In this document: positions 36,770 to 42,637 of the stretch, piece after piece
Layout: each line of letters starts with the position of its first letter
Numbering within the stretch: position 1 is the first letter of the stretch
Assembly: GCA_963705105.1 (NCBI GenBank)
Contig: CAVPIW010000005.1
Coordinates: 588,987-652,986 of the forward strand
Direction: 5' to 3'
From: an uncultured Nitrospiraceae bacterium
GTDB lineage: Bacteria > Nitrospirota > Thermodesulfovibrionia > Thermodesulfovibrionales > Dissulfurispiraceae
DNA length: 64,000 nt
Translations under genes and position numbers: made by a program
The notes under the pieces: model-generated
What the model saw: only the letters and a program-made list of their open reading frames with translations
Told to the model about the DNA's origin: nothing
Databases searched by the model: none

Positions 36770-36795
36770 CAGGGAGGGGTGGAGACCCCTCCCTG
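36770..36795. terminator. Stem-loop between convergent genes
   Basis: CAGGGAGGGGT-GGAG-ACCCCTCCCTG perfect 11-bp stem. Confidence 0.75.
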
Positions 36796-36801
36796 GTTGT
36801 T

Positions 36802-38514
36802 TTAGAAGCGCACGTCGAAGGAGAAGTAGAGGTCCCAGGCGTGCTTGAGCGGGGCGAAGAGCTGCGTCTTCGTCACGTCGTTGGCGCTCAGATCGCCGAT
36901 CTTGAAGGACTGGCCGACCCAGTTGCCGCTGCCCGTGTAGTCGAAGTCGTAGTACTGCCACCCCAGCCTGAAGAAGGCGAGACCCCTCTTCGAGATGGGA
37001 ATGTTGAAGAGTTCCTGGATGGCATAGATCTCATAGACCTTGCCTCTCGCGCCGAGCTTGGACGTCCAGATGTCGTCTCCCGCCGGAACGAAACCGATCC
37101 AGTTGCCCGATCCGTAGTTGAATTCGAGGCCGATCTTCGTCCTCGTCGGCTTGATGTCATACCTGCCGCCGACATAGAACATATGGCCCGTATGGCTCTC
37201 CTCGTCCACTCCCGGCGTGGTCGGGTCGTCGTTGAAGCCGAGTCCGAAACCGCCGTTGAGCACCTGGTCCGGAATGCCGTCACCGTTGATATCGACGAGG
37301 GCAAAAGGCAACGAGAAGAGGTTGCCGTTCGGGTGGGTCTTGCTCAGGGCGGCAGCACCGAAGAGATGGAGATCTCCCGGGCCGAGGTCCTTGATCTTGC
37401 CCATGACGAGACCGCCGAGCCAGTCGATGTCGCCCAGGTTCGTCGTCACCGGCGTGGTCACGTTGATGAAGCTGCCCGTGGTTTGGGGCGGATTCTGGAG
37501 GAATCCCGGATCGACCTTCGTGACGAACCCGTCCGGCGGGTTTGTAAAGATTTCAAATCCGCGCTGCCATTGAAGGGTTACGAAAAGATTCTCCGTTTCG
37601 TACGGAGTAATATTAATACCGAAGAAATTCACGTCTTCAAGGTTCGAACTGAACCCGTTATCGAATCCCCGGCCCGCTCAAAGCTTCGCATAGGCGCCGG
37701 GAAGACCCGGAATCTCGGGCTGAACCCCGAAAGACGCCCCGTCAAAGGCGTAATCCACGAGGAAGCAGGGAATGCCTGCCGTGCCCTCCTTCTCCTCGTT
37801 CATCCGCAGGTGTGAAGGCGGGCCGTTCGTCGAAGGCCTCCTTCCGACGGAGAGCCAGATGGGCTGATCGGCGATGTTGGCCCAGGTGACAATGGCCCTG
37901 TCCACCCTGACCTCGCCGTCCGTCGGCACATGTCCTATCGTGCCGTCAAAGGGCCCGAAGGCCCTGTCGGCAAAGAACTGGCCGTCCGTGGGCTGTGACG
38001 TCTGGTGGCCCCAGATTTTGTACATCAGGAGCCTTCCCTTGAAGTTGATGTCCTCCGTCGGCTTCGCCTTGATGTCGAGCCTCAGGCGGTTGGTGAGCAG
38101 TGAGTCGTTCTCGGCGTCGAAGGCCTGCTGAGGCCTGGCCAGGAATGTCGTCACTGCGCCCGGAACGGGGAAGTTGGGGGCGCGGATCGCCGTCCCGAGG
38201 GCCGGAGCGAACTGGTCATACTGAACGTAGTCCACAGTCCTGCCCTGGAGAATGTCGTGACGCGACCTGAAGTCACCGCCGATCTCGAGCCAGGACGGCC
38301 AGCCTTTCGGCTCGTCGGCCTTTTTCTCGACCTTGGTGATCCTCTCTTCCTTGACCGTCTCCTGCTTCTGCATCTCCTGCATCTGCTGTTTGAGTTTCTC
38401 CAATTCCCTGGAGAGATCATCGATCTTCTTCATCAGATCTGCCTGATCGACAGCGAGCGCAGGGAGCGGCAGCAGCAGGGAGAAGGCAAGGAGCACCGCT
38501 GCAAGAGTGCGCAT
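36802..38514 (-). CDS. DUF3373-like outer-membrane beta-barrel protein with in-frame UGA (candidate selenoprotein)
   Basis: ORFs 37678-38514 and 36802-37632 are one frame separated only by TGA 37680-37678; signal peptide, coiled coil, C-terminal YFSFDVRF. Confidence 0.8.
37639..37670 (-). promoter_or_regulatory. Candidate bacterial SECIS element
   Basis: GGGGAUUCGAUAAC-GGGUUCA-GUUCGAACCUU hairpin starting 7 nt after UGA; G-initiated apical loop 21 nt from UGA. Confidence 0.65.
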
Positions 38515-38624
38515 ACAAACCTCCTTTCTCTATTCAGGGATGATCAGCGGTCATCCCCAAAAAAATTTGGTCACCGCCAATGGCGGTGGTTCGAAACGTC
38601 TTATGTACAGAAAAATGTAAAGTT

Positions 38625-38795: not shown

Positions 38796-40670
38796 TCAGA
38801 CTGGCAAGCCGAGCCCTTTCCTCTTCTCGTTGATGTGGTTGATCATGAGGTCGGCCGCCTTGTCCGGATCCGGCTCCACGGCGAAGCAGGCCCCGAAGAT
38901 GTCGCTGAGTCCCTTCGTCGCAAGCTCCGTCACCTTGCTGCTGCCCAGGATAGGCGGCATGACGCCGAGAATGGTGAAAATGCCGCTCGCCATGGCATAG
39001 AAGGCGATCGTCGCCGCCTTTTCCGAATACCACTCCGGCGCCGCGCCGGCAAGGGGAAGCTTGTCGATGTCGACGCCGATCGCGTTTGCGAGGGCGCAGG
39101 CGATGACGATGATCCTCGAGTTGTCGACGCAGGACCCCACATGGAGACTCGGGGGGATACCGAGAAGAGAACAGACCTCTTTCAGTCCCGGGCCGGCCAG
39201 ATCCTTCGCCTCCGGCACCTGGAGGCCCGCCTTGCCCGCTGCGACGTTCGCGCATCCCGTCGTCAGCACGAGGACGTCGTTGGCGATCAGTTTCCTGATG
39301 AGATTGACGTGGCCGTAATCCTGCCTGATCTTCGGGTTGTTGCACCCGACGACGCCGGCGGCGCCCCTGATTTTCCCTGCCTTGATAGCGTCGATGAGAG
39401 GAGTGAGACTGCCGCCGAGGGCGCCGACGATGGCCTCGACGGAGAAGCCTGTCATGCTTTTTACCGGCTTCACGGGGATGTTCACCCGAGCCGGGTTTCT
39501 CCGGCTGAAGTTCTCCACGGCCTCCCTGACGATGCGGGATGCCTGTTCCTTTGCGTTGTCGGGAGTGAACTCGACGTGCTCCATGAAGGGGAATTGGGCC
39601 TTGTCGGAGGTCGAATAGAGTTTCGTGTGGTAACATTGGGCGACGTGGCCGAGGGACGGCATGATGCATTGGTAATCGACGATGATCGCCTCCGCCGCAC
39701 CCGTCACCAGGACGAGCTCCGTCATGAGATGGTTTCCCGCCATGGGCACCTGTTTGCGCATCATCAGCTCGTTGCCGGTGCAGCACAACCCTGTAAGGTT
39801 GATCCCCGAGGCGCCCTTCGACCGGGCGAACTCCTTCAGCTCCTTGTCTTCCACGGCGAGGTATATCATCTCTGAAACGAGGGGGTTGTGACCGTGGACG
39901 AGGATATTGACCGCATCTTCCCTGAGCACCCCCAGGTTCATCTCGGAGAAGCCCGGTGACGGCGTCCCGAAGATGATATCCGACACCTCCGTGCCGATCA
40001 TGGAGCCGCCGTATCCGTCGGCAAGGCTCGTGCGCACGGCATGGAGCAGAAGTGAGGCATAGTTGTTGTCGACGCCCATGTGTGTCCGGTGCATCGCCTC
40101 CGACGTCTCACGGTCGATGCCGCGCGGCATGACCCGCAGTTTTTCCCAGAGCGCCCTTCTCTGCTGCGGAGCCCGGTTGACGAAGGTGATCTGCTTCTTC
40201 TTCGTCCCGAAATCTTCCATCATCGTTTCGGCCAGTTCTTTCGCGATCTCCCCAACGGGGCGTCCGTCCGTGGCGACGCCGTATTCCCCGGCGATGCTCT
40301 TCAGTTTGTCCGGGTCCCTGATCTCGTAGCCCGGGGCTTCTCCCATGCCGACCCTGTGCATCACCTCGACGAGGTCTCTCCCGTGGTCCGAATGAGAGGC
40401 TGAGCCTGCGGCGATCATCCGCGTCAGGTTCCGGGCGACGATGATATGGGCGTCAGCCCCGCAGATCCCCATCTGCGGTCCTTCGCCGAAGGGGTCGATC
40501 CGGCAGGGTCCCATGACGCAGTTGCGGCAGGAGACGCCGAGTTCACAGTAGCCGCAGTGAGGCTGCTGCTTCTCCAAACGGTCCCAGACGGTCTCGACGC
40601 CGTCCGCTTCAGCCTTTCTGATCATCTGTATCGCGTCGTCACATATGGAGTATTTCCTGAAATCCCGCAT
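38796..40670 (-). CDS. cooS: Anaerobic Ni-Fe carbon monoxide dehydrogenase
   Basis: CRNCVMGPC, HSDHGR, VHGHNP, GLCCTGNE, DYQCI, GCNN, GSCVDN, SEKA. Confidence 0.97.
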   Translation of the reverse strand: MRDFRKYSICDDAIQMIRKAEADGVETVWDRLEKQQPHCGYCELGVSCRNCVMGPCRIDPFGEGPQMGICGADAHIIVARNLTRMIAAGSASHSDHGRDLVEVMHRVGMGEAPGYEIRDPDKLKSIAGEYGVATDGRPVGEIAKELAETMMEDFGTKKKQITFVNRAPQQRRALWEKLRVMPRGIDRETSEAMHRTHMGVDNNYASLLLHAVRTSLADGYGGSMIGTEVSDIIFGTPSPGFSEMNLGVLREDAVNILVHGHNPLVSEMIYLAVEDKELKEFARSKGASGINLTGLCCTGNELMMRKQVPMAGNHLMTELVLVTGAAEAIIVDYQCIMPSLGHVAQCYHTKLYSTSDKAQFPFMEHVEFTPDNAKEQASRIVREAVENFSRRNPARVNIPVKPVKSMTGFSVEAIVGALGGSLTPLIDAIKAGKIRGAAGVVGCNNPKIRQDYGHVNLIRKLIANDVLVLTTGCANVAAGKAGLQVPEAKDLAGPGLKEVCSLLGIPPSLHVGSCVDNSRIIVIACALANAIGVDIDKLPLAGAAPEWYSEKAATIAFYAMASGIFTILGVMPPILGSSKVTELATKGLSDIFGACFAVEPDPDKAADLMINHINEKRKGLGLPV

Positions 40671-40772
40671 CCCTATCTCCTCCTGAGCTCTTCCATGTGT
40701 GCCTGATAGGCCCTGAGCGCTGAAAAACCGGTCACGGGCGCCTCTTTCTCCCGGATCCCCAGGTAGACTATG

Positions 40773-41270
40773 TCAGCCATCCGGTCCGTTTCCCTCTTCA
40801 TAAAGACATTCGACATCCTCGAACAGGAGGGCGCCGGCCTTGCAGACCTCCACACAGGCGGGAATATGCCCCGTCTTCTGTCTCAGGATGCATTGGTCGC
40901 ACTTATGGGCGGCCGGCCGTTTGACGGCAGGTGAAAGATGGAACCGCACAACCCCGAAGGGACAGGCCATGGCGCACATGCCGCAGTTGATGCACCGTTC
41001 GGGATTGATGAGGACCGCTTCAGTCACGTCTTCCCGGTAGATGGCTGCAGACGGGCAGGACATCTCGCAGGGCGCCGGCTTGCAGTGCCTGCATTTGTTC
41101 GGAAAGGATTCCCCCCTGCTGCTCAGGCCGATGTGGATCCGGGGTTTCGACAGGACCGGCTCATAGATTGCGGTATAGGGCGAGCGCGAGGACGAGTGCG
41201 CCACAGCGCAGGCGAACCTGCACTGGAGGCAACCGACGCAGCGCTCAGGTCTGACAATGACCGTTTTCAT
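40773..41270 (-). CDS. cooF: CooF-like 4Fe-4S electron transfer protein (C-terminus probably frameshifted to 40673)
   Basis: CVGCLQC..AC, CRHC..APC..CP, CINCGMCAMACP, KCDQC..PACVEVC. Confidence 0.9.
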   Translation of the reverse strand: MKTVIVRPERCVGCLQCRFACAVAHSSSRSPYTAIYEPVLSKPRIHIGLSSRGESFPNKCRHCKPAPCEMSCPSAAIYREDVTEAVLINPERCINCGMCAMACPFGVVRFHLSPAVKRPAAHKCDQCILRQKTGHIPACVEVCKAGALLFEDVECLYEEGNGPDG

Positions 41271-41289
41271 CAGTTCCTCCTTCGGTGGA

Positions 41290-41415
41290 ACGAGGATTGG
41301 GCATGATTTCTTCGCAAAATAAACTACCTCTTCTCTTATGTCTATCAGCCTCATAAACCAATAATAAACAATCATACTCGCAATCAGCGAGGCTCTGAGG
41401 CGTTTTGCCCCGCCT
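41290..41415. repeat. Truncated modular repeat between FNOR and cooF
   Basis: CAATAATAAACAATCATACTCGCAATCAGCGAGGCTCTGAGGCGTTTTGCCCCGCC matches 17040-17097. Confidence 0.85.
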
Positions 41416-42637
41416 ATTCATCCAACGACGGGGTAAACAGATCTGCCGGCGTTACATCGCCGTCCACGATCGCCCGGGGAGACACTCGAAGGGGCCGGCC
41501 TTTTCTGATAAGGTTCAGATACGGGCCCGCTTCTTCCGTGTTGTTGTAAAAGGCCAGTCCCACGGGAATACCGTCCCGCAGGGCAAGCTTCCTGAGCTGG
41601 TTTCGCCCCCGGATATACCGTTCGACCGTCGTGACCCCCTTGCCCCGGAGGATTCCCCCTGTCACGAGGTGGAGACCCGGCAGTTTCAGGCTGTTCACGG
41701 CCATGCTTCCCCGGTAGGGAGAAGGGATGCCCGCCATGTTCAGCGCGGCATAATATCCCTGTTCCGTCGCCACCGGCCAGATTGCATTGACCCACGGAAC
41801 GCCACGGACGAAATCGATGTTCTCACAGCAATCGCCTGCAGCGTAATGATCTTTGATCGACGTTTCAAGATGCTCGTTCGTTCTGATCCCGAGATCGATG
41901 TCCACGCCGGCCCGTCGCGCCAGTCCTGCCCGCGGTCGCACCCCCTTGCCGACGACGATGACATCGGCATCCAGAACGGTTCCCGATTTCAGGGCGACCC
42001 TTGTGCAGTCCCGTCCCGCCTTCACGGAGGCGACGTCCTCGCCGGTGCATATGTCGACGCCCATGCCCCGCAGGTCCCGCTCCACGAGACGGGCGACCTG
42101 TTCGTCCACGTTGAGGGAAAGGATGTGCCCCGACGAAACGACGAGGGTCGGCCTGATTCCCCGTTGGACGAAACCGCAGGCGGTCTTGATGCCCACGAAG
42201 CCCCCACCCACGACGACAGCGCTCCTGTCAAGAAACCGGTCTATCATGCTGGCGTCATGAAGATATCTCAAATTGAAACAGCGGTTTTCCTCCGTCACAT
42301 AATCGGGCTTGATGGGGGAGGCGCCGGTGGCGAATAGGAGTTTGTCGTATGAAAGGCGCTCCCCGCCTGAAAGCACGAGGGTCGTATCCTTCACATGCAC
42401 TTCCTCGACACGTTTGCCGAGCAGAAAAGTGATGCACGAGGCATATGACGAGGGGTCCTTCAGGATCATCGTCTCCCTGCGAAATTCCCGCGCAAAGGCA
42501 TATGTCAGCATGATCCTGCTGTAGGGGAGGCAGTCTTCCTCGGAGATGACGGTGACCTTCAGGTCAGGGGAAAGGGCGACGAGGGTGTCGAGGCAGGACA
42601 GACCGGCGGCGCTTGCACCGATTATGGCAATGTGCAT
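41414..42637 (-). CDS. FAD-dependent NAD(P) oxidoreductase (FNOR)
   Basis: IIGASAAG, PYSR, LFATGA, VGGGFVG, YAAGDC; typical cooF-cooS partner. Confidence 0.9.
   Translation of the reverse strand: MHIAIIGASAAGLSCLDTLVALSPDLKVTVISEEDCLPYSRIMLTYAFAREFRRETMILKDPSSYASCITFLLGKRVEEVHVKDTTLVLSGGERLSYDKLLFATGASPIKPDYVTEENRCFNLRYLHDASMIDRFLDRSAVVVGGGFVGIKTACGFVQRGIRPTLVVSSGHILSLNVDEQVARLVERDLRGMGVDICTGEDVASVKAGRDCTRVALKSGTVLDADVIVVGKGVRPRAGLARRAGVDIDLGIRTNEHLETSIKDHYAAGDCCENIDFVRGVPWVNAIWPVATEQGYYAALNMAGIPSPYRGSMAVNSLKLPGLHLVTGGILRGKGVTTVERYIRGRNQLRKLALRDGIPVGLAFYNNTEEAGPYLNLIRKGRPLRVSPRAIVDGDVTPADLFTPSLDE

Follow-up and report, generated by a model that had tools for sequence, protein, structure and literature searches.

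The 64,000-nucleotide stretch analysed here (the window; contig CAVPIW010000005.1 of assembly GCA_963705105.1, from an uncultured Nitrospiraceae bacterium) carries on its minus strand, at 36802..38514, a gene for a DUF3373/OMP50-like outer-membrane porin with one UGA codon inside its reading frame. We conclude that this UGA, codon 279, is very probably decoded as selenocysteine (Sec). The conclusion is drawn from the position of the UGA at a conserved cysteine, the Sec machinery of the genome, the recurrence of the UGA in relatives and selection on the frame downstream of it. The same evidence supports an earlier note on this DNA, which had proposed that the gene may encode a selenoprotein although its family is not an established selenoprotein family.

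Standard open reading frame (ORF) calling cuts the porin gene into pieces of 278 and 276 amino acids. When 38514..36802 (-) is translated with TGA as U, the 570 codons give 570 residues; the frame contains just one TGA, at 37680..37678, within GAYAKL-U-AGRGFDNG, as expected from the original proposal that this segment unites two ORFs into one protein of that length. The Pfam family DUF3373 (PF11853) matches residues 134-570 (E 7.4e-130; 434 bits against a gathering score of 26.1), running straight across the TGA from position 2 to position 409 of the 409-position model. An NCBIfam scan of the porin returned no specific model, only a weak match to the FapF coiled coil. A pseudogene, in which a nonsense mutation turned TGC or TGT into TGA and left the halves as decaying remnants, is an improbable origin for this arrangement: the Pfam match crosses the TGA over the whole model, the 291 codons downstream are open, and this is the only DUF3373 copy detected in the genome with the window protein as query.

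The window protein was aligned with its best 120 full-length homologs (46-62% identity, BLASTP). Column 279 holds Cys in 119 of the 120 and Phe in one (P0039), and this Cys is the only cysteine of the protein in 93 of them. P272, K277, G281 and G283 around it are invariant, and Cys at column 279 is also encoded by each of the 28 Cys-form genes taken from the genomes of relatives. The cysteine that the earlier note expected in DUF3373 homologs (K.C.GRG) is thereby verified, in the context K-x-C-x-G-R/K-G. The coincidence of UGA and Cys in these sequences is clearly beyond chance. Cys-form DUF3373 proteins of Thermodesulfovibrionales/Nitrospirota (e.g. P0002 and P0003, 62-61% identity) share length, domain and the motif LPGAYAK-x-C/U-x-G-R/K-G with the window porin, and differ in having Cys where it has the Sec codon. 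Further differences lie just beyond: the Cys forms have Tyr280 and Ser286, whereas the Sec forms with downstream sequence (window and the relative G013, described below) have Ala280 and Asn286, and the loop after strand 275-284 is 2-3 residues longer in the Cys forms. P0002, a Cys form bearing both Cys250 and Cys279, stands beside the window protein on the tree with a Shimodaira-Hasegawa-like approximate likelihood ratio test (SH-aLRT) support of 83, below the starred level. One Cys-form locus, L036 (G040:C16), reads C-A-G-R-G, with Ala280 like the Sec forms where Tyr is usual, and may have reverted from Sec to Cys.

Whether the organism can make and insert Sec, a check proposed in the earlier note, is answered by its genome (99.4% complete, 19 contigs), which holds selA, selB, selC and selD. 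With NCBIfam cut-offs for the sel genes, selA scored 594 bits (above its cut-off), selB 362.6 bits against a cut-off of 242, and selD 317 bits, also above cut-off and with one in-frame TGA of its own; ARAGORN placed a tRNA-SeC (anticodon tca) at C6:789406-789503. In-frame TGAs were also found in two Fdh-alpha-type genes, in yeeE-type matches at C6:152455-153429 (-) and C6:641462-641968 (+), with two TGAs reported each, and in nuoB at C5:32616-33180 (-), at TFGLA-U-CAIEM. The yeeE and nuoB TGAs fall at conserved Gly/Ala-rich sites and are followed by hairpins. Judged by its gene content, the organism clearly uses Sec widely, with a genome rich in predicted Sec genes. The complete machinery and these other genes argue against the idea that near-cognate decoding inserts Cys, Trp or Arg at the porin UGA, or that the UGA mostly terminates and yields little full-length porin, in either case free of selenium. 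We regard this as no more credible than a pseudogene: Sec at a conserved-Cys position forms a classical Sec/Cys pair, and leaky decoding would leave unexplained why TGA recurs at this codon alone. In its favour, the case for selenium incorporation is made from sequence and is not direct.

Recurrence was examined at several scales. Among 61 related genomes, including the window's own (G000), 39 gave a match, and a TGA lay inside the match only in G000 and in G013, a member of another genus whose porin is 61% identical in protein sequence. G013 carries selA and selB, and the TGA of its porin aligns with that of the window protein (LPGAYVKL-*-AGRGFDNGFSSNL), with the downstream frame open there too. 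In a phylum sample of 401 genomes, 90 had a match (E <= 1e-20), and the TGA was again confined to G000 and G013. A pattern scan for TGA in the conserved protein context found one locus in 185,579 species genomes, a set that may not include the window's own genome, and that locus was G013's own; the same pattern gave 0 loci in a JGI metagenome set. This rarity of the Sec form, at 2 of the 90 phylum-sample genomes with a match and one pattern locus besides the window's own genome, would fit a pseudogene, as would a second stop in the G013 copy, taken up below.

The database fragments point the other way. Of 52 short database matches, 19 are N-terminal fragments starting at residue 1, and seven of these stop exactly at residue 278, all with ...LPGAY[A/V]KL: P0123 (99% identity), P0124 (66%), P0125 (63%), P0126 (65%), P0127 (60%), P0129 (58%) and P0130 (53%). 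The remaining 12 have 12 different end positions. In a phylogeny built from residues 1-278 (128 rows, quick IQ-TREE with SH-aLRT support only, two rows with short N-terminal parts left out), the nine Sec-form rows are scattered among Cys forms in several starred clades, with six state changes. The same codon is affected in at least eight sequences of 52-99% identity, and repeated change at one codon only fits Sec/Cys interchange, not random decay.

Several further matches touch on the extent of the Sec form. Five C-terminal DUF3373 fragments (P0128, P0138, P0148, P0149 and P0152) have their Met start at residues 292-312, shortly past the Sec column. Identity to the query is as low as 45-51% in some, and these fragments may represent the 3' parts of additional Sec-form genes from more distant lineages. 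A match in G149 that starts at residue 278 was rejected as a Sec form, as a contig end cuts the gene and the Cys is present. The metagenome motif PCFxx[DN]YAFDG likewise led to one locus, L044, which is a Cys250/Cys279 form without TGA and probably the same as G052/L028. G013 also has a second DUF3373 paralog on its contig C5, 42-44% identical.

An error in one base of a Cys codon, in sequencing or assembly, is exceedingly improbable. The 99% identical N-terminal fragment, on another contig, ends at the same place, and G013 shares the TGA. We also aligned contigs from four studies (three DNA runs and one RNA library) to window positions 37300-38100, giving no weight to read-cover depth or uncovered parts. 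Contigs spanning the UGA codon do so at 92-100% identity, one being identical over 151 nt and another covering all 795 nt with 59 differences, and among those listed (40 of 107) there is no difference at 37678-37680. A base error, which the earlier note had named as a possible refutation, is hard to reconcile with a TGA that a second species shares and that separate assemblies repeat.

The same contigs bear on selection. In contigs of 92-93% identity, 24 of the listed differences lie 3' of the UGA, and 22 of these affect the third base of a codon in the read-through frame (P 4e-9, with one third expected); upstream the figure is 11 of 16. Because of this third-position bias, the downstream half is under purifying selection in frame, which bears on the comparison of the two sides of the UGA suggested in the earlier note and runs counter to a pseudogene.

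A candidate selenocysteine insertion sequence (SECIS) follows the codon. Minimum free energy folds place a hairpin, GGGUUC-AGUUC-GAACCU (37640..37656, minus strand), with a spacer of 21 nt behind the UGA; adding the pair C21-G40 lengthens the stem and leaves U39 bulged. Intragenic SECIS elements of bacteria, such as that of E. coli fdhF and those of selD, fdhA and yeeE in the window genome, likewise form a stem-loop soon after the UGA with G-U in the loop, and the selD element (GGGUCC-GUC-GGACCU) is one compensated pair away from GGGUUC/GAACCU. In G013 the hairpin is identical in sequence despite the 61% protein identity, and lies in a nucleotide block, GGGGAUUCGAUAACGGGUUCAGUUCGAACCU (37640..37670, minus strand), that is common to both genomes with one C/U difference (GGGGAUUYGAUAACGGGUUCAGUUCGAACCU). 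In 20-codon windows, nucleotide identity to G013 is highest over codons 274-293, reaching 0.87 where the rest of the gene has about 0.6. At the site of the hairpin the Cys forms encode G-F-R/K, which provides the 5' arm only, and the clean stem-loop is missing. The identical hairpin within the most conserved nucleotide stretch argues against selenium-free decoding. We infer, with moderate confidence, that SelB uses the +21 hairpin, a role that is plausible and unproven.

A number of observations weigh against Sec decoding or blunt the evidence cited for it. The earlier note had described a bulged hairpin with a G-initiated loop 21 nt after the UGA and found it to fit bacterial SECIS geometry. 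Its position stands, while the loop opens with A and has G second, not first, and the bulge exists only with C21-G40. The geometry would agree with the bSECISearch model, which reportedly takes 16-37 nt to the loop and a G in the first two loop bases. It is atypical among the genome's own elements: the 21-nt spacer is the longest of six measured, exceeding the other five elements or candidates (11 nt in selD, 14 and 11 in fdhA, 14 in yeeE and 16 in the nuoB candidate; range 11-16), and the loop AGUUC differs from GUC, GGUCU, GGACU, GGUA and CGGGA. This atypical spacing leaves some room for termination or selenium-free read-through. The energy of the 86-nt fold is unexceptional (z = -0.09 against shuffles), a point that would also suit a pseudogene, and the same 33 nt in the Cys forms fold at least as well as the window hairpin in 5 of 28. 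A rival hairpin, GG(A)UUCGA/UCGAACC, with a 9-nt spacer and 13-nt loop, is mutually exclusive with the first and, by eye, equally kept in G013; the comparison involves two Sec-form DNA sequences only, too few for a covariation test. The G013 porin copy has TAG where the window has Gln43 (LDRLK*QMQ, in the N-terminal helix), which may mark a decaying gene or an assembly error. The six foreign fragments stopping at residue 278 would end at TGA, a stop codon unseen as DNA. As to the environmental contigs, their agreement at 37678-37680 is not proof, the difference-free stretch 37616-37707 around the UGA is just the second-longest gap among the listed differences, and those from the RNA library are no proof of transcription.

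Two features of the folding were set aside as evidence: hairpin stability, which is not significant against shuffles and overlaps with the Cys-form controls, and the lower stem of a 60-nt fold, in which G013 by eye disrupts several pairs. Within the gene, at 37607-37591 (-), a hairpin of terminator type (CUCCGU-ACGAA-ACGGAG, then AAUCUUUUCG) occurs about 70 nt downstream of the UGA, inside the AT-rich island described next; it would suit a UGA at which expression mostly ends. It is not kept in G013, and in a terminator/promoter scan the counts were at chance level.

The codons after the UGA are AT-richer than the rest of the gene, as the earlier note had observed and as is borne out by a drop in third-position GC (GC3) over codons 281-315 (37570..37674, minus strand; GC 0.37-0.52, GC3 0.45-0.60). 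Most of the gene has a GC3 of 0.75-1.0, as against 0.45-0.65 over approximately codons 261-320, with a minimum of 0.45 at codons 291-310. The island could reflect constraints of RNA structure, or could be a patch acquired from a low-GC relative (the G013 gene has 45.6% GC). Transfer of a TGA/SECIS cassette could explain both the island and the 87% identity to the G013 gene; against such a transfer, segment 240-278 of P0127, P0129 and P0130 resembles that of their own clades.

We found no prior description of DUF3373 as a selenoprotein family. In the open-access literature searched, DUF3373 is not tied to selenium and PF11853 goes unmentioned. The prokaryotic selenoprotein family table of a 2026 review (PMC13188914), in its accessible part, has no entry for DUF3373, PF11853 or a porin; the accessible part of the BSepDB supplement (PMC13326102) does not mention DUF3373-porin terms; and the available text of the deep-Sep paper and the Haft preprint does not name outer-membrane porins as selenoproteins. 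So far as these partial sources go, DUF3373 would be new as a selenoprotein family, although the phenomenon itself is well known. Gene callers that split the porin into two "hypothetical" halves thus mis-annotate a conserved outer-membrane protein of sulfate-/sulfur-cycling Nitrospirota, including the only DUF3373 copy found in the window genome. The finding would add a diffusion-channel family, not an enzyme, to the bacterial selenoproteome. It also draws attention to the lone, near-invariant cysteine of DUF3373, undiscussed in the literature searched; Sec at that position argues that the residue does chemistry.

Other outer-membrane barrels are predicted to carry Sec. The accessible part of the same review (PMC13188914) catalogues two predicted outer-membrane selenoproteins, the GSU2204 CXXCH barrel (NF041027) and the FCYXU TonB-dependent receptor (NF049945), both beta-barrels like the window porin. 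They offer a sequence-based precedent for export and assembly of a Sec-containing barrel. Neither model matched the window porin in the NCBIfam scan, and its translation holds no CXXCH heme motif and no CxxU motif. Those are different families; in the window porin the proposed Sec stands in a barrel strand of a channel resembling general porins, where homologs have a lone Cys.

An AlphaFold2 model built from a 121-row alignment (predicted local distance difference test, pLDDT, 86.3; predicted template modelling score, pTM, 0.81) has a long helix at residues 24-66 (38317..38445, minus strand) and then a beta-barrel, in which residue 279 belongs to strand 275-284. Foldseek matched the model to general porins, AlgE, OmpM1 and DcaP with template modelling scores (TM-scores) of 0.3-0.4 on the query, modest values that support the fold class only. 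The family profile matches PDB entries 10aw/10dn ("50 kDa outer membrane protein", OMP50) with E 8.2e-14 over profile positions 37-475. As described in the accessible text of its report (PMC13759207), OMP50 of Campylobacter jejuni is a homotrimer of 16-stranded barrels with three pores per trimer, its 44-residue N-terminal helix joins a periplasmic three-helix bundle, loop L4 extends into the neighbour's pore, and a cation-selective conductance is cited. OMP50 (CjTK) shares the long N-terminal helix and porin barrel with the window protein and is only distantly related to it; at the aligned column it has Ala, where the window has the Sec codon and its relatives Cys, and its long L4, on the same partial account, corresponds to the short loop 285-294 of the window porin. 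By analogy, the modelled helix 24-66 probably forms a periplasmic trimeric coiled coil. In the accessible parts of two further papers, TCDB places DUF3373 in the putative porin family 1.B.62 (PMC4827864), and a DUF3373 protein is among the abundant proteins in the proteome of a sulfur disproportionator (PMC13490349).

The strand alternation of the model suggests that Y275, K277, U279, G281 and G283 would face the pore lumen, and the hydrophobic or aromatic A276, L278, A/Y280 and F284, along with the basic R/K282, the lipid, which would set Sec279 beside the invariant Lys277 in the channel. A second cysteine, Cys250 (codon 37765..37767, minus strand, in a PCF motif), travels with the Sec form: it is present in eight of the nine Sec-form rows, whereas P0002, P0065 and L044 are the only 3 of the 119 rows with the Cys form to have it. 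Its six changes are scattered on the N-terminal tree, and P0127, P0129 and P0130, which over 240-278 are like their own Cys-form clades, themselves otherwise free of Cys250, have replaced N/S/A-I/L by C-F at 250-251. This suggests repeated co-occurrence of Cys250 and Sec rather than one inherited block. Two results tell against the association. With a control for kinship there are four independent pairs and a median p of 0.5, the Cys250 trait agreeing in about two of the four and never being opposite; and G013 has Asn250.

On these grounds we propose a mechanism. SelB with Sec-tRNA(Sec) would bind the +21 hairpin and deliver Sec at the UGA, where Sec279 would stand in for the single, near-invariant cysteine of the family. 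It would then act within the channel as a reactive centre, redox or nucleophilic in kind, cycling with a thiol partner: the protein's own Cys250 in Sec forms and, in many Cys forms, a periplasmic TlpA-like redoxin. That Cys250 and Sec279 form a selenenylsulfide redox pair in the pore of a trimeric porin is a tentative suggestion that we think unlikely, although Cys250 and the redoxin neighbour do hint at redox chemistry. If correct, it would describe a redox-active or redox-gated outer-membrane channel, whose role might be to take up or pass on sulfur, selenium or solutes that react with thiols, or which might gate by redox state. The scattered Sec and Cys250 states would then record repeated co-evolution of the pair, and the neighbouring redoxin would serve the same chemistry in trans in Cys forms.

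Gene neighbourhoods were compared for 88 of 140 listed ORFs around L043, the second locus of the Sec form, and 28 loci of the Cys form. L043 is the same as L014 (G013:C10), with an identical ORF layout and a 210-nt shift. Porin ORFs, the duplicate loci (L014, L044) and some dozen ORFs that overlapped others or were cut at an end were left out, and the relatives' flanks are only 1.5-2.5 kb long, so that absence there means not adjacent. An AhpC/TSA-Redoxin protein with a WCGPC motif (TlpA-like) adjoins the Cys-form porin in 11 of the 28 loci (L013, L020, L022, L024, L030-L033, L037, L039 and L040), mostly directly downstream on the same strand. None lies beside the porin in the window (16 ORFs scanned) or in G013; the window genome's homolog of this redoxin is on contig C14, at 49% identity and unlinked to the porin. 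Sec at the DUF3373 cysteine offers a way into what this uncharacterised family of porins and its recurrent redoxin neighbour do.

In the window, the next gene upstream on the same strand is cooS (TIGR01702, 693 bits against a cut-off of 478), as the earlier note had said. It belongs to a set at 38796-42637 (-), directly upstream of the porin, that comprises cooS, a CooF-like 4Fe-4S ferredoxin and an FAD/NAD oxidoreductase. The redox or metal handling that the note had read from this neighbour finds no backing in other genomes, where none of the 88 neighbouring ORFs scanned matched the CO-dehydrogenase family and the link is not conserved. The 281-nt gap between cooS and the porin contains, by eye, the inverted repeat CACCGCC-ATT-GGCGGTG and a T-run.

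The ends of the porin gene were read directly. A strong Shine-Dalgarno sequence, AAGGAGG (38520..38526, minus strand), lies 5 nt 5' of the ATG. The signal peptide and C-terminal Phe reported earlier are both recognisable by eye in the translation: the N-terminus, MRTLAAVLLAFSLLLPLPALA/VD, resembles a signal peptide of residues 1-21 ending ALA/VD (38452..38514, minus strand), and the protein ends ...FSFDVRF. Downstream lies a convergent gene for a CBS-DHH pyrophosphatase, and between the two genes is a 10-bp, GC-rich inverted repeat, CAGGGAGGGG-N6-CCCCTCCCTG (36770..36795). The terminator scan did not flag this repeat, which is possibly a shared terminator of the porin and pyrophosphatase genes.

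Other genes recur near the Cys-form porins. In L030-L033 the redoxin is followed by a 120-124-residue ORF without a Pfam match, and a 160-residue ORF, also without a Pfam match, lies divergently upstream in L024, L025, L031, L032, L039 and L040. Multiheme cytochromes c of the Cytochrome_cB, MtrC/MtrF-like and cytochrome c7 types are found within 1.5 kb of the porin in L017, L027, L033, L034, L035 and L037.

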